In this document: positions 8,565-58,249 of the stretch, piece by piece
Layout: the number at the start of each line of letters is the position of its first letter
Numbering within the stretch: position 1 is the stretch's first letter
DNA from: Podarcis gaigeae
Taxonomy: Eukaryota
Length of the DNA stretch: 64,000 nt
Strand: one strand, 5' to 3'
Assembly: GCA_964106915.2 (NCBI GenBank)
Contig: OZ066927.1
Translations under genes and position numbers: made by a program
Notes under the pieces: model-generated
The model's input: the letters and a program-made list of their open reading frames with translations, nothing else
What the model was told of the DNA's origin: nothing
Database searches by the model: none

Positions 8565-9397
8565 TAATGTTAATGCAGGGAACGACTGATTTATGCATTT
8601 CCAATTGACTTGTGCACCATGGTGACCCAGAGCTGGCTGGAAAAGGGGGTGGGGCAGAGACGGAATGGGCTTAGGTGCACTCTGACAACACATGGGGGTA
8701 ATCTTCAAAATTAGCCAGGAAGGGCGTCTGACAGCTCCACCACCTGAAGGTGCATGCCTGGGGATCATTGGATCATGACTTTTTTTTTTTGCACACTAAT
8801 ATCAGATCCTGTAGAATTTTATCAGTTATGTTTTATCTGTACAATTGGACTGAATTTCAGGAACCAAAATGCTTTTTCTGAGCAGGAGCAGTAAACGTTA
8901 TAGTTAATTGTTGTAGCTTTTCATTTGCCCCACCCCATTGCCCTGCTCACAGTTGTGAAGAATATTCTTATGATATCAATGGTCCATGTCACCATTAAGA
9001 AAAGGAGGTCAAAATAAGTCAGTATATATGTGGACTGTCCCTGGATAAAGTGACTTTCCTTTTTAAATTTCTCAAAGTTCTTAACCTAGCTCAAGGCTGT
9101 CATCTGAACTAGCCAGATGTTTAACAGATAATCAATCACAGTCAGTCCTTCATTTGAAAAATAAGACTTTGGAACCGTATTTCCCTAAAATGGCAACTAG
9201 ACATTCCATTTTGGCAACTGCAACCTTGGTTTAAGGAGCCTTTTGGCACCTAGCTTATATATCTGAGTTTCTAACACTGGCGTGGGGGTGTATGCAAATC
9301 GGTTGTTGCCTGTATAAGAACATTGATCCTACAGTTAATGAGCATTGCAGAACTATGACACTCCCCCTCTGCTCTCCTCTTCCTGCATGGTCTAGAT

Positions 9398-9533
9398 CAG
9401 TGTTTCCCAACCTTGTGCCTCCAGATGTTTTTGGCCTACAACTTCCATCATCCCTGACCACTGGTCTTGCTAGCTAGGGATGATGGGAGTTGTAGGCCAA
9501 AAACATCTGGAGGCACAAGGTTGGGAAACACTG
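9398..9533. mobile_element. hAT (Charlie-like) palindromic MITE
   Basis: 58-bp arms (9398-9455 / 9476-9533) with a single mismatch; perfect 8-bp TSD GTCTAGAT (9390-9397, 9534-9541). Confidence 0.9.
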
Positions 9534-12500
9534 GTCTAGATGAGAGATAAAAAGTCTCTGGTTCTAACTTCACATCATGGTTAATAATCTTGGTTTCATT
9601 GAATGAAACATAGTTTAACACTAACCACAGTTTCAAAATAAAGAATGCTCCTCTCAGTGCACAAACCCATGGCTTTCTCATGCAATACTAAATTTTGTGT
9701 GAACCAAACCAAACTCTAAACTGAATCAGTGCCCTCTACTAGATGCAGTGAATTTAAAGATGGTTTCCTATGTAAATTAAGAACCAATTTGATCATTGAC
9801 CGTACATAAATATTTACAGCCTACTTACTCAACATAGGTATTTCATTTCTACCTCATATGTTGCTCTGATCTGCGCAGTACCGGTAACTATCAGCCCTTG
9901 CTTTGACCTATCAGTCATGGGAATTTCATTTTTGTTTGCTCCTTTCTTTTTGTGATGGCACGGCTGGGCCAAGGCAGAAGGAAAAGCAGACAGGAGCAAT
10001 ATTGGAAAGAGGGAAATATGGAATTGTCTAGTGTGCACGGTGTTTTTCCACACCTAGTGATACCTTCTGGTTGTAAGATCCTATATACTGTAATAATAAT
10101 TTAATGAAATTATTTATATAGATATGTTTTAAAATCTATTAAGCAATGTTATGTTCTAAAATTAGTAAAAAATAAACTTGTATTTAAAAATTATACAAAA
10201 TATCTCCTTTACCCCTTCTATAACTAATGTCCTATTTAGTTGTAAATTAGTGTTGCCTAGTGGTTGGATTTGCACAATTTAAAATAAAATGTGAAGTATA
10301 TCAATAGGAAACTTGATTTAAATTTGCTTTTTTTTCTTGCAGATTTAAATTATGAAATGTAATTGTTTCAAATCCCCTTGACTGGATTTTGCTGCAAGCA
10401 AGGTGGATTTCAGAGTTGTTTTTGGAGCTCAGCTGTTAAAAATGGAAGAATGAGATTGTCTGCAGTGTGCTGCTCTGTTGTTTATTCGAATGGGATTTTA
10501 TAGGGCTGCTTGGAAGAGGACAGATGAGCCAGGCTCTCTGTTTAATCTGTGGACTGGAGAGGTGGTCTTCCTCCTGATAATATTTTAATCTTATCTGTTT
10601 AGTCACTGTTTATAGGTTTACTAAAGGGGGTGAGGAGCTACCTCTGCTGGGTTTAAAGGAGGAAAGCCTCCAAGACCAGTGACAGCCAGCACATGTCCGT
10701 CTGAAAATGAGCACTTCTTGAAAGTGAAAATTCATTCTCTGCTGGAATGGAATTCTGTTCAATTCCCTGTTAGCCCTATGAACTTCATATGGTTGCATTC
10801 CATACGGCTTATGCAATGGACTTCTCACAGTGAAATCCTTATACATCTTAATGAGAAGTTATTTGCATGCCTGAATTTCCCTGAACAATGATCTAACTGT
10901 TGGAAGTTTGCTGTTTGACTTAGAATAGTGGCTTGTAACAATTGCATGATTGATAGCTTGAAGAGACTATTTCTGTAAGTAGTCAGGTTAGCAATTTATT
11001 TCTTAAAGGGACACTGATACTAACAATAACACTTGAATTGGTTTAATTTGGCCTTGCTATCATAGCAATTCCACTTATGGCCGCACTTTTTTGTATATTA
11101 GCATAGCTAGTGATTGCTTCTGCCGCTGGTACATACACCTTTGGTACGAAATGCACACAATAAATGATATTGGATTGCTCCCCTGCATATTTTGGTATGC
11201 CTTGAAATAGAAGTATGAATTGGATATATCCAGTCATTTTCCTTATGTCTCCTTGAAAGTAGAAGGACCTTTTCAGGGTGGGGAGAGGGCCTCTTCTGAC
11301 CCTGAACCTAAAGATCCATTGAAGCTTTGGCCATCTTGAGCTGTGAGGAAATGCTTCCTTCATTGCAGTAAATGATTTAGCATTTTATTCATGTTTATGT
11401 CCCTGCCAGAACATGTGAGATGTGCTCTTGAGGTTTTGTTCTAATTTTGTCATTGGGACATTTTCGACAAAATGACATCTGTAAAGGACTATATGAAACT
11501 CTCAAATTAGTTATTTTAGTGCTTTATTCTGGAGGGTCCTATCACCTACCTGCAGAATCTTGAAGCACCTGCCAGCATTGCTATACTTGCTTTGACCTGG
11601 TTAGTGAGTCCTAAAGTGCACAAGAATAGAAAGTGTGCACAAACTCTTTCTCCTTATCCACAGCAAGCTTAATTATGGAGCCTATCATACTTCACCTTTA
11701 ATCCTTTTTGAATTCAGACCTTTATAATGTCTACTCATGATGGTACAAGTTCAGTTGTATGGATCTTCTGGAACTAGTAAACAAGCTAATTGAGGCTATG
11801 GACATTGACACATTTGGAGCAGTTGGTGGTGGTGGCAGAGGTTCTGCATGGAGCTTGTGACCTCAGCGTCATCATGTGTATGCTGTTCTCCCTTCCACTC
11901 TCCAGGACCAGGTGCAGGATTGTGGGCATGCTCCTAATACCAGGTAACTTTTATGTTGGGTCTCCTGTTGCTGTGTATGAGCCCCAAGTTACTGTTGGAA
12001 CTACTCTTAAAATTTATTCTGGTCTTTGTATTGAAAGCTGTTAAATAGGCTGGAAACAAATGTTAAAGTGATACTCTCCTTGAATAGTATAGGAATTTAC
12101 ACCATCCTCCTTAAAACTATCCAGCTTTTGTCTTTTGGAAGGGTTCTTGCCTATTAGTCGCATACAGTAAGTTTTTTTGTGTATCTATCAAAGAAAATAA
12201 ACCTGTATTTAACCCAGTATCCTTGCCTATTATTTGGCAATATAACAGGGCCAGCAGGTCATGATGTGTATGCTGAATTTGCTTCCCTCACTAAAAAAGG
12301 CCACAGTCATTGGATCACATGCTAGTTATCTTTTGGTGCTTCTATTCTGTCTGCTTTGGGTGAAATTGTTTGCATATCCATGAAAATGCCAATGGATATG
12401 TTTTGGGAAAAGAAAGCCAAAGGTTAAAGTTCAGGATAAGTTGCCTTTGTGGCTTTGCACAGCATGACACTAGTATGTTGCAATTGTACTCCACCCTCAC

Positions 12501-24696: not shown

Positions 24697-25380
24697 CCGT
24701 ATTTTTCGCTCCATAAGACGCACCAGACCATATGGCACACCTAGTTTTGGAAGGAGGAAAACAAGAAAAAATTATTCTGAATCCCAGAACAGCAAGAGGG
24801 ATCTGGCTTCTGGGATACCGTGTGGCTGTTCTGGCTTCTGGGATAACCGCGCCAAGCCTCTTCAGGGCAGCAGGATGAAGGCTTCCCTGCTGTGCGGGGC
24901 TAAGGCAGAAGCCAGGACAGCAAGCGAGATCACTGCATAGTGATCCCTCATGCTGTCCTGGCTTATGGGATAGCCGCGTGCAGCCTCTCCCGGGCAGTGG
25001 GATGAAGCCTCCCCCTGCCCGAAGAGGCTGTGCGCAGCCAGGCGTGTCGCTGAAGGGGCGCTGCATAGAGAGGGAGAACTGCACAGCGCCCCTTCAGTGA
25101 AGCTGGAGACGGAACAGAAGGAGACCCTTCTGTTCCTCCTCCGGCTTCCAGGACAGGCGCATCGCTGGAGAGGTGCTGCACAGAGAGGGAGAGCTGCGCA
25201 GCGCCCCTTCATCGAAGCGGGAAAAGGAACAGAAGGGGCTCCGTTCCTCCTCCCGCTTCACTGAAGGGGCGCTGCGCAGCTCTGCTTCTCTCCGCAGTGC
25301 CATTTGCTCCATAAGACGCGCTCACATTCCCCCTTACTTTTTAGGAGGAAAAAGTGTGTCTTCTGGAGTGAAAAATATGG
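24697..25380. mobile_element. Tigger/pogo-like non-autonomous DNA transposon with internal GC-rich repeats
   Basis: TA|CCGTATTTTTCGCTCCATAAGACGCAC ... GTGTGTCTTCTGGAGTGAAAAATATGG; a partial relative lies at 62560-62727. Confidence 0.8.
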
Positions 25381-26618: not shown

Positions 26619-26764
26619 GTAAATCTAGTTTCATCTCTCTGGATATTTTTTCACCTTCCTGACCTGATGCCCTTTTCTTTCTTGCACCCAATTTCATTTT
26701 GAGGCAATGAGTGATGCAGAAACAAAGTGTTCTCAATACTGATTTGGGGATGGTCTCTGAGTAA

Positions 26765-27140
26765 GCAGGTGGCGCTGTGGTCTAAACCACTGAGCCTCTT
26801 GGGCTTGCTGATTGGAAGGTTGACTGTTTGAATCCACACAATGGGGTGAGCTTCTGTTGCTCTGTCCCAGCTTCTGCCAACCTAGCAGTTTGAAAGCATG
26901 CAAGTAGATAAATAGGTACCACTGTGGCAGGAAGGTAAAAGGCATTTCCATGTGCTCTGGTACTCATCACGGTGTCCCATTGCACCAGAAGCAGTTTAGT
27001 CGTGCTGGCCGGAAAGCTGTCTGTGGACAAATGCTGGCTCCCTTGGCCTGAAAAGTGAGATGAGCGCCACAACCCCACAGTCGCCTTTGACTGAACTTAA
27101 CCATCTAGGCATCCTTTACCTTTCTTTTTTTCTTTTTTAC
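26765..27140 (+). mobile_element. Sauria SINE (older copy)
   Basis: GGTGGCGCTGTGGTCTAAACCACTGAGCC...CTGCCAACCTAGCAGTTTGAAAGCA...TTTACCTTT tail. Confidence 0.85.
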
Positions 27141-39979: not shown

Positions 39980-41037
39980 TGTTATAAGAATTAGATGTTC
40001 AAAAATGTACCAAGCAAACACATACAAATATGTACCGTAAACCACATGTCTGAAACCCACAGAAAAGTCCTGAAGCAATTTTCTCTTTCACAAAATGACC
40101 TCAAATATTTCTCTACAAGGTCGAAGTAAATGGGGAAAAACCTCCACATTGTCTCTGTGCTCACAAATCCTGCCTTAAGGGCACATTTAAGATGTGAATA
40201 GGATGAACATGTGACCTGGAATCGGGAATTAAGTAGTTATAATAACAAAAGAGTGGCCAAAACCCAGATAATGCAATCAGGTAACCTGCCAGACAGGAGA
40301 TAACACACTCAGGATTCTGTTTTAGACCGCCCCTTCTGAGATGTATGTATGATGTATTGGGGGAGGTGGTCCTGCGCTACACCAATTCTGTGTTGTATGT
40401 ATGATGTTTCTGGGGGTGGTCTGGAGTTTGAGGGTGGGCAATTTCCAAAGTCTATATAAGGGTGGGCACACCTTTGTTCTGGGTTCCTCCTCTTTCCTGC
40501 TTGTGGTGAGTGAGGACCCTGTTGCAAGAGTTTAATAAAGATCAGGCTTAATAGCTGGGTGGTACTGTGGGTTAAACCACAGAGCCTAGGACTTGTTGAT
40601 CAGAAGGTCGGCGGTTTGAATCCCCACGACAGGGTGAGCTCCCGTTGCTCGGTCCCTGTTCCTGCCAAACTAGAAGTTCGAAAGCATGTCAAAGTGCAAG
40701 TAGATAAATAGGTACCACTCCAGCGGGAAGGTAAGTGGCGTTTCCGTGTGCTGCTCTGGTTTGCCAGAAGCAGCTTAGTCATGCTGGCCACATGACCCGG
40801 AAGCTGTACACCGGCTGCCTCGGCCAGTAAAGTGAGATGAGTGCCGCAACCCCAGAGTCAGCCACGACTGGATATAATGGTCAGGGGTCGCTTTACCTTT
40901 TAATAGCTGCTTTGCTTTTCAATATTCTCTGACTGGCCTCTGTTATTTCTCCTACCAATAGAGAACCTACAAAAGGACTCTATATGGGCTCTTGGGTACC
41001 CCATAAGGGAAAAGGAGCAGGTTTTCCCCTCATAACA
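39980..41037 (+). mobile_element. Solo LTR (ERV1/gypsy-type) with nested Sauria SINE
   Basis: TGTTAT...ATAACA termini, 4-bp TSD TTGG, TATATAA at 40453, AATAAA at 40534. Confidence 0.85.
40558..40899 (+). mobile_element. Sauria SINE nested in LTR
   Basis: Sauria SINE body; TSD TTAATAGCTG (40548-40557, 40900-40909). Confidence 0.92.
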
Positions 41038-41349: not shown

Positions 41350-41800
41350 TGATGGACAGCAGAACCAGACCAGAGTCTGAAATTCCCCCAGAGGGCTGGA
41401 GCCTCTCTCTGATTAGCTACAGAGTCTGCTAGCCACAGGGCGGGGGGAGCAGCACTTTGCGGGGCAGGGGGGAAGAATATAAATGGAGCCATTTCTGAGG
41501 GAGAGAGTTAGATAACAGAAGAGTTAGTAACAGAAACTGAAGCGTAGCAACTGATTTTGAGTAAAGAGTGGTTAAGAGAAGCTGTGAGACATCTTATACT
41601 GTAGTTAAAGTAAACTTCTAACAGACAGTATGCAATTCCTGACCCCACTTTGTTTCACAAATTTCTTTTTGCTTAATAAAACTTTTCCTCTTTGCTTGAT
41701 CAACTCCTGCCTGAGATGGTAAATGGTAAAACTTATGTGACTGGCATACAGAGTGTGTGCTATATTTAATTGGGGTCAGTTAGCGGGGTGAGTCCACTCA
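41350..41800 (+). mobile_element. Probable solo LTR (second family)
   Basis: TGATGGAC...GTCCACTCA termini, TATAAA ~41478, AATAAA at 41675; no clear TSD. Confidence 0.55.
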
Positions 41801-41825: not shown

Positions 41826-42766
41826 AAATCCGAGGGCTCTCTTGGACAAAAACAAAGACACCAACCAGGATAAGTTGGAGCAAAACAGCAGCCTGTAGGC
41901 TTGGCCTTTATTGGATACTGTCGCGACAGGACTCCCACCCGCAACAAGATGAAGCAAAATGGAAGCCCAGAACAAAAGAAGACCCCAACTTTTATTAGTT
42001 ACTAATCCCCCAAACTCTGGGACGCGGGTGGCGCTGTGGGTAAAACCTCAGCACCTAGGACTTGCTGATCGCATGGTCGGTGGTTCAAATCCCCGCGGTG
42101 GGGTGCGCTCCCGTCGCTCGGTCCCAGCGCCTGCCAACCTAGCAGTTCGAAAGCACCTCCCGGTGTAAGTAGATAAATAGGGACCACTTACTAGCGGGAA
42201 GGTAAACGGCATTTCCGTGTGCGGCTCTGGCTCGCCAGAGTAGCTTTGTCATGCTGGCCATGTGACCTGGAAGTGTCTGTGGACAGCGCTGGCTCCCGGC
42301 CTATAGAGTGAGATGAGCGCACAACCCTAGAGTCTGTCAAGACTGGCCCGTACGGGCAGGGGTACCTTTACCTTTACCTTTAATCCCCCAAACTACACTC
42401 CTAAGACGACATGACAACTACATCACAAAAAGGAGGGGTTGAGGGAGGAGTTGTGGTGGTAACCTGAGTATCTTGTCACCTGGCTGGTTCCTCCTTTCGC
42501 CCCTCCCCATGAGTACTTTCCTGGTGACAGAGGGGAATTTGCAGTTTCCTGCCCCCCCCCCAAGGAAGAGCTGATCATTGTCCTGTGTTCCAGTCCATGC
42601 TGAATCCACTCCTATATGCAAGTTCTTTATGACCTTGATGGTCTTCTGTCTAGGACCATCAGGGTTGGCATAGCAACTTGGCAGGGCCTCCTTGTATGTG
42701 CTGGTATGCTCAAGGGATTATAGCTGGCCTGTATCAAACCTTCCCCATTTTGTAGTCCTTCCTTCA
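41826..42766 (-). mobile_element. Probable solo LTR (third family, antisense) with nested Sauria SINE
   Basis: Minus strand begins TGAAGG; AATAAA on minus at 41907-41912; flanked by direct repeat TGGAG (41821-41825, 42767-42771). Confidence 0.6.
42017..42380 (+). mobile_element. Young Sauria SINE
   Basis: Full body, CpG-rich, (ACCTTT)n tail; 14-bp TSD TAATCCCCCAAACT. Confidence 0.95.
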
Positions 42767-43875: not shown

Positions 43876-44036
43876 CCCCCACACACACACCCACACACAC
43901 ATTTGCATACACTCACAGGCTGGAAGCATCAAAGCACCTCTGGAGGCTTTACCCAAGGCTGGCTATAGCTATGGTCCAAGTGACAGCCCCCCTCCATGAC
44001 CCACCAACTAATTAACACTATGCATAATCTACCAGA

Positions 44037-44622
44037 TGGTGCATCATCACTGCAGATAGTGACAGCAGCCACGAAATTAAAAGACTCCTGCTTCTTGGGA
44101 GAAAAGCAATGACAAACCTAGACAGCATCTTAAAAAGCAGAGACATCACCTTGCCAACAAAGGTCCGTATAGTTATTAAAGTCATGGTTTTCTCAGTAGT
44201 GATGTATAGACGTGAGAGCTGGACCATAAAGAAGGCTGATCGCCGAAGAATTGATGCTTTTCAATTATGGTGTTGGAGGAGACTCTTGAGAGTCCCATGG
44301 ACTGCAAGAAGATCAAACCTCTCCATTCTTAAGGAAGTCAGCCCTGAGTGCTCACTGGAAGGGCAGATTGTGAAGCTGAGGCTCCAATACTTTGGCCACC
44401 TCATGAGAAGAGAAGACTCCCTGGAAAAGACCCTGATGCTGGGAAAAATGGAGGGCACAAGGAGAAGGGGACGACAGAGGACGAGATGGTTGGACAGTGT
44501 TCTTGAAGCTACCAACATGAGTTTGACCAAACTGCGGGAGGCAGTGGAAGACAAGAGTGCCTAGCGTGCTCTGGTCCAGGGGGTCACGAAGAGGTGGACA
44601 CGACTAAATGACTAAACAACAA
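44037..44622 (+). mobile_element. BovB (RTE clade) LINE 3' fragment
   Basis: ORF MTNLDSILKSRDITLPTKV..ESWTIKKADRRRIDAF.LWCWRRLLRVPWTARRSN..LQYFGHLMRR.DSLEKTLMLGK; (CAA)n tail; 14-bp TSD CATAATCTACCAGA. Confidence 0.95.
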
Positions 44623-45727
44623 CATAATCTACCAGAAAACACAAGAACACCACAGAGAGCTGTAAACTTAAGCATGCTTCACTCTATACTGAATTGTGGC
44701 TCATGAATATTCATTTCCTTATATGCTTAAATTTGTGGTCCACCAGACCTGGAGGCTCTGAGCAGCTCACAAAGGACATCCAGCACTGCCCTGGCCAGTG
44801 ATGATTGACTAATTGAAATAAATTCGCCCCTTCCTTTGTTGACAAACAAGTAGGTCTTAAAATACTTCTGAAAGGCCCCCTGACTTCAACCCTGGCCTCT
44901 CTACGTTAATTCTGGAGAAATTAACAGGGGAGATATGATGCTGGGACTTTATAGCCAGCACCTTGAATTGTGCATGGAAAATAAGAGGGCAGAGCTGCAG
45001 ACGGCAAAGCACCAGTGTAAGCTGCTCCTGACTCACTAGTGGGTGGACTGTACCACTGCCAGGAGTGCGGGTGTAGTCCACCTCAGGTGCAAGTCCCCAT
45101 TTAATTAAGAATGGAGGCCAAGCAGTCTCACCGACATTTTCACTCGTGTTTCTGAGATATCATGGAAGACACAGGATGCCAATGGTGTAGTCACTGAAAG
45201 ATTCCAGTTGTCTCCTTACTGTAATATTATGCACACTTGCTCATGGGTTACCAACATTGAAATAAGTAGAAGTTACGTCTGAGTAAATATGCTCAACCTT
45301 GCAAGAACAGAGAGTACAGCTAGAACAAACTCAGCACTCACTTCCAGCTGGCATTGCAGGGGGGGGGGGGGGCTTGATGGTGGCAGGCCACCTGACTTTG
45401 AGAAGGTTGTCCATTAATACAACTGATTTTCTTTGTTGCTAAACCAATGGGGTTCCCCGGAACGCAGTTTGAGAACAAGCCCTAGTATGCCTTGGGAGCA
45501 ATCACGGTAATATCTGCACTATAAGGGCTGCCAGGCACTCCTTGCTATCTGGGTGAAAATCCTTGCTGAGGATTACATGAGCATCTCCTGGTCAGCTGAG
45601 AGCTCAGGAAATACAGGAAAACATTGCCTGGCTTCTATTCAGGAGAATAATTTTGTCTGATATATTTGTAAAACGGTAAATGATTGAAGACAAATGGGAG
45701 TTGCCACAAAAACTCTTAATAAAAATG

Positions 45728-45733
45728 TTTATT
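45728..45733 (-). terminator. Candidate CA12 polyadenylation signal
   Basis: TTTATT on + (AATAAA on -) about 1 kb after the CA12 stop; further candidates at ~45782, ~45899 and ~45914. Confidence 0.45.
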
Positions 45734-46202
45734 ACATGCTGCTATATAAAGTTGAAATTACTGATTAAGTATATATTTTTGTTTATTTACAAATTTGTGG
45801 CTTCTACCTGTTGTCACTAGCAATAACAACTAGGAGGAAACAAGATTTCTCTAGCCTGAACCTAATGGAGCTCATTATAGTCTCAGAGGAAATGTGAGTT
45901 TTATTTGACCTGTTTTATTTGAAAGTACCTGACCCCTGACCTATAAACTGCTTAAAACTGGCGCTGGGAAACCTGCATCCAAAGCAGGTTTTCTATCCAA
46001 ATTTGCTCATTTTCCTCTCAACATTTCCCACTGTTCCAATTCTATTACTGACACGATCTTTCAATCTGTCACCAATAATGTCATCTGCTCCCTAATACAG
46101 GTGATTCCTTAACATTAGCAGCACTGGTTTTCTGATAGGGGGAGGGGAGTCACATTTTCATACACATGAAAAGCTTTCTTCAAACTATAGTACTTTTTGT
46201 TA

Positions 46203-46408
46203 CAGGTAGGTAGCCGTGTTGGTCTGCCGTAGTTGAAACAAAATAAAAAAATTCCTTCCAGTAGCACCTTAGAGACCAACTAAGTTTGTTATTGGTATGA
46301 GCTTTTGTGTGCATGGTATCTGAAGAAGTGTGCAAGCACATGAAAGCTCATACCAATAACAAACTTAGTTGGTCTCTAAGGTGCTACTGGAAGGATTTTT
46401 TTTTATTT
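46203..46408 (+). mobile_element. Penelope-like element terminal inverted-repeat insertion in the predicted CA12 3'UTR
   Basis: CAGGTAGGTAGCCGTGTTGGTCTG...GTAGCACCTTAGAGACCAAC squamate Penelope-type end; perfect 53-bp inverted repeat; perfect 17-bp TSD TATAGTACTTTTTGTTA. Confidence 0.8.
46315..46354 (+). ncRNA. Minimal type I hammerhead ribozyme motif (Penelope-type)
   Basis: GGTAT-CTGAAGA-A-GTGTGC-AA-GCACAT-GAAA-GC-TC-ATACC: helix I, CUGANGA core, helix II, GAAA, palindromic AGCU helix III, UC cleavage site after 46349. Confidence 0.7.
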
Positions 46409-46743
46409 TATAGTACTTTTTGTTAGCCTTGCTCATAAAGCTCATATTTGAAGTCATAACATAAACAAAGTTCAACACAGCTCCTAATATGTTGTTTGGT
46501 ACACTTTAGAAAAATATTTTTGGTGGGGGGAGGGAATATTAAGGCACATCTCTGTTGCACATCTACTTGAGAGCAAACTCTGTCCTTTCATATTCTATTG
46601 CACAAAGGAGAACAGCTGAACATGTCTCTTGTTGTGCTCAGGCAAAAACAACCCAGCAGATTTGAGTGATAAAGCAAGAGATAACAGTGCAAATGTTTGA
46701 GAAAGTAGTGAATGAGTGGCTACTAAGGTAACTCAACAGAAGC

Positions 46744-46822
46744 TTATGCTTTGGAAATATTCTCCTCTTTGCTGATCGCTGGCTTGTAAATGACCCCTTT
46801 TTCTTCCCTTGTTTGTTTGATG
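46744..46822 (-). CDS. CA12: CA12 last coding exon (SIKQTREEKGVIYKPAISKEENISKA*)
   Basis: ttcag| acceptor, TAA at 46746-46744; KGVIYKPA is diagnostic of the CA12 cytoplasmic tail. Confidence 0.93.
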
Positions 46823-47205: not shown

Positions 47206-47293
47206 CTCTTCTTCCTTCGAATCAGCCATAAGGCTACCACGAGAATGAAGACACTGCCAAGACTACTGGCTAATACAACAAATGGAACAAAAC
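47206..47293 (-). CDS. CA12: CA12 transmembrane exon (GFVPFVVLASSLGSVFILVVALWLIRRKK)
   Basis: ctag|...|gtaag, phase 1 to 2; hydrophobic helix plus RRKK stop-transfer. Confidence 0.92.
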
Positions 47294-56143: not shown

Positions 56144-56650
56144 CTGAAAGAGATCACCCTTTTTTTATTAACTATATTCTTGCCAGCCCAACTCTCAGCA
56201 TATTTTTGGATGCAGCATTTCCTTAATTCTTTACTTTGCCCTCTTTTCCATTATTCCAGATAAGCAGGTTTCATTTGTGCATGCAAGAGAATGAGCACTT
56301 TCACCAGTCAGTCCCCCTGATGCTGTGCATCTAGCTAGAAAAGCAAAGTGTTCTGCTCTAAAGGTCACAGCTATGACAGCCAATCAGTGTGGCTGGCTGC
56401 TGCAAAACACGTACTTTGCTGAGCAACAAAAGTCATCATGACACATGCTCAACCGCAGGTTAGCTAACTTGTCTAGGACAGGGGTGGGGAGATGACAGTG
56501 AGGCAGACAACAGGGTGGGTGCACAACAATGGTATTGATGGATAAAACAAGCAGAATGTATTTTGTTACGCTGCTTTTTTAATTTTTTGTTTATGCTGCT
56601 TTGGGTTATCACTTGCTTATAAACAATTCAGTACCACATACAGCAAACCA

Positions 56651-57006
56651 GGGGGCGCGGGTGGCGCTGTGGGTTAAACCACAGAGCCTAGGACTTGCCG
56701 ATCAGAAGGTCGGTGGTTCGAATCCCCGCGATGGGGTGAGCTCCCGTTGCTCGGTCCCTGCTCCTGCCAACCTAGCAGTTCAAAACCACGTCAAAGTGCA
56801 AGTAGATAAATAGGTACTGCTCCGGCAGGAAGGTAAACGGCGTTTCCGTGCGCTGCTCTGGTTCGCCAGAAGTGGCTTAGTCATGCTGGCCACATGACCC
56901 GGAAGCTGTACGCCGGCTCCCTCGGCCAATAAAGCGAGATGAGCGCCACAACCCCAGAGTCGGCCACAACTGGACCTAATGGTCAGGGGTCCCTTTACCT
57001 TTACCT
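56651..57006 (+). mobile_element. Young Sauria SINE
   Basis: Full body, (ACCTTT)n tail; 12-bp TSD TACAGCAAACCA. Confidence 0.95.
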
Positions 57007-57134
57007 TACAGCAAACCAACCTCACACCGGTCTCTAATGAATTAACCTGCACTGCAAGTACATCCTAAATTGACAAAGTCTTCTGATTTGACTGCTTAGG
57101 GATGCAAAATTCCAGTTGAAATCCTTTTTCCTAC

Positions 57135-58026: not shown

Positions 58027-58153
58027 GTCTAGAGGGACAAGCTTTGAACCTGGATAGAATCATCAACTGCCAAGAGCCAGATAAGACCCTATTATATTAA
58101 ACCTCTGGGTGCACTTCAATTTTTGGACACTTTTGAGGGAAAGAGCCCCTTAC

Positions 58154-58249
58154 CTCAATCAGGATTGCCAAGACTGCCAGTCCATCTGATTTGTCCATTG
58201 CTGAGTTCACGTCCAGATATTTGTCAGAGTTGTAATGTACGATGTGGAG
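58154..58249 (-). CDS. CA12: CA12 exon 5 ([32 protein letters not shown])
   Basis: aag|...|gtaag, 96 nt; Zn ligand His119, GLAVL motif. Confidence 0.95.

Follow-up and report, generated by a model that had tools for sequence, protein, structure and literature searches.

A probable dead Penelope-like insertion carrying a decayed hammerhead motif in the CA12 3'UTR of the lizard Podarcis gaigeae

The window analysed here is a 64,000-nucleotide stretch of Podarcis gaigeae DNA (contig OZ066927.1, assembly GCA_964106915.2) whose minus strand carries the carbonic anhydrase 12 gene (CA12). A match to human carbonic anhydrase 12 is found in an exon around 58150-58240 (-), and splice joints at 46822/47206 and 47291/53718 are found in contigs of three runs from related organisms that we guess to be RNA. 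Transcript support as a whole comes from four contig sets guessed to be RNA, all from related organisms and carrying no strand, start or cut-end information. The 3' part of the gene is laid out as follows:

46744..46822, minus strand: protein-coding portion of CA12's final exon, with its stop codon at 46746-46744 (splice joint 46822/47206)
47207..47293, minus strand: CA12 transmembrane exon, placed by contig splice joints
45715..46743, minus strand: CA12 3'UTR of about 1 kb, its end near 45715 suggested by an AATAAA at 45733-45728 and by contigs stopping at 45738 and 45744

Within this 3'UTR, self-comparison of the window reveals a 206-bp insertion (46203-46408) flanked by 17-bp direct repeats, a target-site duplication. 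Its two arms are numbered by the leader of the parent element, in which +1 is the A of an initiator-like word seen in longer copies:

46186..46202, plus strand: left copy of the target-site duplication, 17 bp
46203..46315, minus strand: left arm, element leader from +21 (mid helix II) through the end of the tail
46203..46239, minus strand: tail, on the left arm only, from comparison of the arms and a full-length copy
46316..46408, plus strand: right arm, leader from +4 to a T-rich stretch, tail-less, holding the whole hammerhead
46409..46425, plus strand: right copy of the target-site duplication
46315..46354, plus strand: hammerhead motif, minimal type I, predicted cut 46349/46350
46253-46305 with 46343-46395, either strand: perfect 53-bp stem within a 76-bp imperfect stem

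The last four bases of the left duplication (46199-46202) show microhomology with the tail end of the element, so the duplication may read as 13 + 4, and in 19 of 30 copies these bases are element sequence. The arms form an inverted repeat of 76 nt at 92% (46240-46315/46333-46408), and the 206-nt unit folds far better than its shuffles (z = -19.6). Compared with close siblings, the window copy has changed at 46234, 46306 and 46341, all in CpG, and at 46335; with three of its four changes outside the T run at CpG, its decay after insertion appears to have resembled that of sibling copies. Elsewhere in the window lie four copies of a 350-bp repeat that we take to be a Sauria SINE (26755-27123, 40557-40900, 42021-42380 and 56644-57007), a stretch at 44028-44564 that resembles a BovB/RTE fragment, and, in the window self-comparison, palindromic stretches at 9391-9540 and 25057-25301 that are unrelated to the insertion.

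One spliced contig (set X1) runs from the last exon at 46822 to 46370, into the right arm, and others (X1, X5 and X9) lead out of the left arm as far as 45738, 45744 and 45858. Since contigs enter both arms, the CA12 mRNA of two related organisms (A and B) would hold the element, provided that the runs guessed to be RNA are so; the alignable part of a contig from organism D ends at 46202. An initial annotation of this DNA had described a ribozyme antisense to the CA12 3'UTR, and the stop codon together with the spliced contigs of related organisms confirms both that CA12 lies on the minus strand and that the site is in its 3'UTR. The CA12 mRNA itself would be without the ribozyme, as its left arm is missing the CUGANGA half and carries A in place of G12 at 46306; we discarded trans-cleavage of the mRNA through that arm on account of the same G12 change. 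On the CA12 sense strand the T run of the element also adds an AATAAA (46407-46402, minus strand), 670 nt before the likely main signal, and because contigs continue to 45738 it seems, if weakly, not to be the main poly(A) signal.

The insertion belongs to a very numerous family. The exact ribozyme core pattern has 11,403 matches genome-wide, a downstream 30-mer 16,709 and the subfamily tail 499, with reversed controls at 0, and all 40 scored genome candidates, a sample biased by being chosen for likeness, match the 206-bp unit at 91-100% over 196-206 bases. Longer copies extend upstream into a GIY-YIG frame, and one locus (L091, G000:C17:90943500-90951500) holds a full-length element with a 931-aa open frame that has the leader and tail at its start, the tail encoding the first residues of the frame. 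This frame contains RVT_1 (E 1.7e-11), GIY-YIG (E 8.4e-5) and a C-x4-C-x2-C linker. We thus find the features of an EN+ Penelope-like element (PLE), namely a reverse transcriptase together with a GIY-YIG at the C terminus, in one frame with two cysteines inside the GIY-YIG motif (CCHH), as well as an inverted 5' pLTR copy, a one-sided tail of 37-41 nt and a 17-bp duplication. According to the excerpts of PMC8557442, a CX2-5CxxC linker before the endonuclease marks Neptune or Nematis, and we identify the parent as a Neptune-type Penelope-like retrotransposon, the clade resting on this linker motif. The window hammerhead accordingly reads as a single member of a set of >11,000 that a known mobile element has left behind. 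A younger subfamily has probably been active recently, given an identity of 97-100% in all 150 scored endonuclease matches. In place of the ACG found in the older subfamily to which the window copy belongs, the L091 tail reads ATG. Another long element (L096, G000:C21:424000-432000) sits inside a different LINE-like frame with a 999-bp inverted 5' copy (99.8%), the same head-to-head form on a large scale.

The hammerhead motif comprises CUGANGA and GAAA boxes, an NUH cleavage site and pairable helices I and II, as expected of the minimal type I, and every letter named in the initial annotation stands at its position, including the cut between 46349 and 46350. Helix I pairs 46315-46319 with 46350-46354, the core CUGAAGA (46320-46326) is followed by one extra A at 46327, helix II begins at 46328, and GAAA (46342-46345) leads through the palindromic AGCU (46345-46348) to C17 at 46349. 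All core residues are intact and the cleavage site obeys the NUH rule; the palindromic 15.2-16.2 and the extra base between 9 and 10.1 (A46327) are present, and helix III is absent, with AGCU in its place. Two details of the annotated helices need correcting. Helix II has 5 bp and a 4-nt loop (46328-46332/46337-46341) rather than 6 bp, which would leave a 2-nt loop, and native helix I has 4 bp, for G46315 is not the element's own base (longer copies have T there). We take G46315 to be either a base added at the junction or the terminal base of the left arm, which would make the fifth helix I pair accidental.

The annotated C-to-U change at 46341 is genuine, C being kept by 22 of 29 close copies. 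It replaces the G10.1-C11.1 pair, called highly conserved in the excerpts of PMC4209133, by G-U, with which helix II now closes, and the loop carries a further change (T>A at 46335). Across 35 older arms, 23% of sites in the C11.1/G12 CpG are changed versus 2.1% elsewhere, and the loss of the pair looks like ordinary CpG decay. Applied to the 64-kb window, a minimal-hammerhead descriptor picks out a single site, where 150 dinucleotide shuffles give 0.013 on average; the fold of the 40-nt motif taken by itself is no better than that of its shuffles (z = -1.0). The Rfam hammerhead models give no match at the gathering score nor at E <= 10. Minimal motifs lacking helix III are found by descriptor and not by Rfam-type models in the excerpts of PMC4209133. 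MicroRNA matches in Rfam, below the gathering score, were set aside as reflecting the hairpin only. The family copies, the descriptor hit and the PLE parent frame bear out the recognition of a Penelope-type minimal hammerhead, of which the window motif appears to be a decayed and not an intact member.

From this motif the initial annotation had derived a switchable terminator, in which the hammerhead would cut plus-strand RNA from upstream repeats when that RNA lacks the left arm or has refolded, and would so end antisense transcription into CA12. Two repeats with TATA-like words lie 4.5-6 kb upstream on that strand:

about 40100-40556, plus strand: interspersed repeat with TATA- and AATAAA-like words, 80-90% alike to other copies
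41350-41725, plus strand: interspersed repeat, also containing words like TATA and AATAAA, 70-83% similarity to other copies

The structural premise holds up well, in that the hairpin that takes the 3' half of the ribozyme is perfect over exactly 53 bp (46253-46305/46343-46395) and predicted folding makes the two folds mutually exclusive. Yet in the secondary-structure model the equilibrium share of the hammerhead fold is 2e-12 for a nascent plus-strand RNA that stops at 46354 and 2e-21 for the full 206-nt unit, and it exceeds 0.5% only for RNA starting at 46304 or later, with a peak of about 16%. On the plus strand the left arm precedes the ribozyme, so any transcript from upstream, including those from both repeats, would hold it. 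The overlap of the two folds seems moreover to be built into the insertion form, because 14 of 31 sampled hairpins have the core on exactly one arm, as the window copy does. The intact core, the NUH site, the share of about 16% reached when the left arm is missing and, in principle, sibling RNAs acting as trans partners are what the terminator has in its favor. Against it stand the share of 1e-12 to 1e-21 in RNA with the left arm, the start of the copy at +4 (which leaves out the element's TATA), and the G-U in place of the conserved G10.1-C11.1. Lacking helix III, the motif would also need a dimer partner, and the descriptor finds no second hammerhead in the 64-kb window. Published activities point the same way: the excerpts of PMC4209133 and of a review (PMC6765202) report no cleavage of single minimal motifs and just weak cleavage of dimers, those of PMC11167929 state that an Anolis hammerhead did not cleave when protein was left out, and those of bioRxiv 10.64898/2026.07.22.740005 that eight of nine Xenopus dimers were uncleaved and one cleaved. 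We consequently abandon the terminator, which we regard as extremely improbable; on the predicted folds the insertion does not terminate antisense transcription into CA12.

The 5' ends of family copies suggest what kind of RNA they were made from. We used two samples. Set A was built from 95 of the first 100 listed matches plus near-matching partner arms (110 arms with at least 335 nt of upstream context, 109 after one duplicate was dropped); set B holds 70 tail-anchored loci with 95 arms, and the two share two insertions. Arms begin at +1..+6 in 32/109 (A) and 20/95 (B), and at the cut site (+37..+39) in 3/109 and 0/95. A genome-wide count, demanding two non-matching bases upstream, gives 3,198 junctions at +4 versus 102 at the cut site and 58 and 79 at its neighbors, the 79 at +39 being inflated by rows that resemble a sequence variant and not junctions. 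Roughly half of those 79 rows have a common variant immediately 3' of the cut and may be a subfamily with a different helix I. By eye, some 36 of 100 listed cut-site rows fit a 4-nt microhomology with the partner arm, to which the small excess over the neighbors appears to be partly due. Inspection by eye of the first 100 rows shows a G before +4 in 73; among fetched junctions it is there in 33 of 44, and in all four where the partner arm ends one base earlier. An origin of this G in the partner arm explains only 3 or 4 of the 33 cases, though 25 of them lie in unassigned filler; the G is consistent with a copied cap or an untemplated base. These end positions favor a template RNA that was uncleaved and a leader that was probably capped. 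They do not show that the ribozyme never cuts, since cleaved RNA may be degraded and leave no copies.

In longer copies the pLTR upstream of the hammerhead has a TATA word about 30 nt 5' of the initiator-like word, that is, promoter sequence beyond the start of the window copy. The initiator-like word 5' of helix I (leader -11..+2, seen in L093 and L036) also reads as a 3' splice acceptor, a pyrimidine run followed by CAG, and in the excerpts of PMC4209133 the Drosophila Penelope has an intron ending at helix I. A second peak of 5' ends at +2 (15 of 205 arms) could reflect splicing or a second start.

The paired arms are characteristic of the family. Among the 78 insertions of set A at least 31 are head-to-head hairpins, a lower bound because short arms lack an anchor; the tail is on exactly one arm in 29 of the 31 and a duplication of at least 12 nt accompanies 25. 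Set B comprises 66 insertions with 29 hairpins, all one-tailed, and one copy carries two tails. Junctions differ between copies, which indicates that each hairpin was made at insertion, and the head-to-head hairpin appears to be a routine insertion form of the element. For the same reason we take the window insertion not to be a self-copying unit; a hairpin SINE or MITE was rejected because junctions and arm ends differ from copy to copy with no fixed internal junction, and a non-LTR retrozyme because the window has a single head-to-head unit with one hammerhead and no head-to-tail tandem.

Neither arm contains the other in 17 of 29 hairpins of set A and 15 of 29 of set B, nor in the window copy, where one arm starts at +21 with the tail and the other at +4 without it; in those 17 of set A the tail-less arm reaches further 5' and the tailed arm further 3'. 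Neither arm can then have been copied from the other, so plain snap-back cannot give such hairpins. We propose that reverse transcription would start at two internal sites about 40 nt apart, the tail end and the tail-less end, that two cDNAs of the short 5' leader would be primed from both nicked target strands and run on uncleaved RNA toward a 5' end just upstream of the hammerhead, where one G would often be added (as a cap copy or an untemplated base), and that joining the two head to head would yield the hairpin. Inverted 5' copies with one-sided tails are described as typical of PLEs in the excerpts of PMC8557442 and PMC3846280, and in those of PMC11167929 the Anolis Poseidon enzyme cuts and extends both strands from two internal starts on an uncleaved RNA template. 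The alternative accepts the same dead insertion and derives its hairpin from snap-back self-priming of one cDNA, or from an antisense template as proposed in PMC3846280 (excerpts), followed by central deletion. Two of the 31 set A hairpins (L142 and L150) are centered exactly on the 14-nt palindrome of helix II, the second arm is nested in the first in 7 of 29, and palindromes at inverted Adineta junctions were read as self-priming in the excerpts of PMC3846280. The tail arm reaches further 5' in 7/29 (A) and 14/29 (B), as snap-back would also give, and unequal arms could come from later deletion at the palindrome center, both of which count against two cDNAs. However, snap-back is at odds with the mutually non-contained arms, and the tail-less arm has a constant stopping point and in many cases extends to the leader 5' end with the extra G, which points to an RNA template for both arms; we consider snap-back unlikely. 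Our literature search gave PMC3846280 only, itself in excerpt, for twin priming in Penelope elements and no description of fold-back Penelope copies in squamates, although subscription papers and supplements may hold more.

We are therefore highly confident that the locus holds a dead 206-bp Penelope-like insertion (of Neptune type, judging by the linker) within the CA12 3'UTR, that it likely arose when two leader cDNAs, primed on the two cut strands of the target, were joined head to head, and that its hammerhead is a passenger predicted to be held shut by the hairpin. Most likely the insertion is a harmless passenger in the CA12 tail and not a switch, although its clean arms and presence in two related organisms leave room for constraint. 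Any effect on CA12 would more likely come through the mRNA's own double-stranded stem than through the ribozyme, and such a dsRNA effect is possible. The minus strand is predicted to fold into one long stem with a 2x2 A-C loop from two CpG changes. Inverted Alu pairs in human 3'UTRs lead to ADAR editing, Staufen binding, nuclear retention and small-RNA production, and one may suppose that the insertion was kept because its 64-76-bp stem acts on sense CA12 mRNA in these ways, the hammerhead being irrelevant. The contigs placing the element in CA12 mRNA of two related organisms, the predicted single stem and the absence of arm mismatches (0/50 nt, with 0 of 16 older hairpins as clean) speak for this. 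However, the locus was picked for its perfection, 16 of 23 young hairpins are also perfect, a clean stem would arise by chance with an estimated frequency of about one in ten at roughly 2% decay per site, no compensatory change is seen, and the contigs come from other organisms and runs only guessed to be RNA; retention for such a role we hold to be improbable. A broader conjecture, to which we likewise give little weight, is that lizards use Penelope mini-hairpins as inverted repeats acquired in one step, with every insertion placing a 50-75-bp stem in a transcript, and that the CA12 copy, shared by related species and unusually clean, was kept to tune the mRNA through ADAR editing (predicted at the A-C mismatches 46341 and 46306) or dsRNA-binding proteins. 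Inverted Alu pairs likewise place long intramolecular dsRNA of mobile-element origin in an mRNA tail, whereas here one insertion brings both arms, the stem is shorter and any function is putative. The CA12 mRNA, which would carry the long stem, offers a simple test case for hairpin effects on host transcripts; a literature search returned no description of editing of such hairpins, which subscription papers or supplements may hold.

Compared with known systems, the window copy is ordinary for its genome: its motif, here decayed, and its form of insertion are both known. It shares with the PLE minimal hammerheads, as the excerpts of PMC4209133 (Cervera and de la Pena 2014) describe them, the short helix I, the extra base before helix II, the absence of helix III, the palindromic 15.2-16.2, the place in the pLTR and the dispersal as thousands of single copies, reported there for reptiles, and it differs from them in G-U for G10.1-C11.1, the loop change, a helix II of 5 bp versus 7-8, and a 3' half that is paired away by the other arm. 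Similar to the non-LTR retrozymes (bioRxiv 10.64898/2026.07.22.740005, in excerpt), it is pLTR-derived, hammerhead-bearing and non-coding, and their exonic copies lie mostly in 3'UTRs; those are head-to-tail tandems with a ribozyme per unit, unlike the single head-to-head insertion here. The excerpted accounts of EN+ PLE insertions (PMC8557442; Adineta Pen2a, PMC3846280) agree in head-to-head arms, a tail at one end, a target duplication, TATA and initiator-like words in the pLTR and a tail encoding the start of the frame, whereas here both arms are cut down to the leader to leave a 206-bp frame-less hairpin, and duplications measure 12-17 bp versus 8-10 bp in Adineta. The PLE insertion cycle is called undefined in the excerpts of PMC8557442, and thousands of copies such as this one form a record of it that favors two RNA-templated arms made from an uncleaved, probably capped leader. 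This record agrees with the one in vitro study, that of Anolis Poseidon PAc (PMC11167929, in excerpt), in its two internal reverse transcription starts bounding the tail, the extension of both target strands and the uncleaved RNA template, which we infer from sequence and which were seen there in vitro; PAc differs in belonging to the Penelope/Poseidon clade and in a frame that starts at stem II, where that of the present element apparently starts in the tail.
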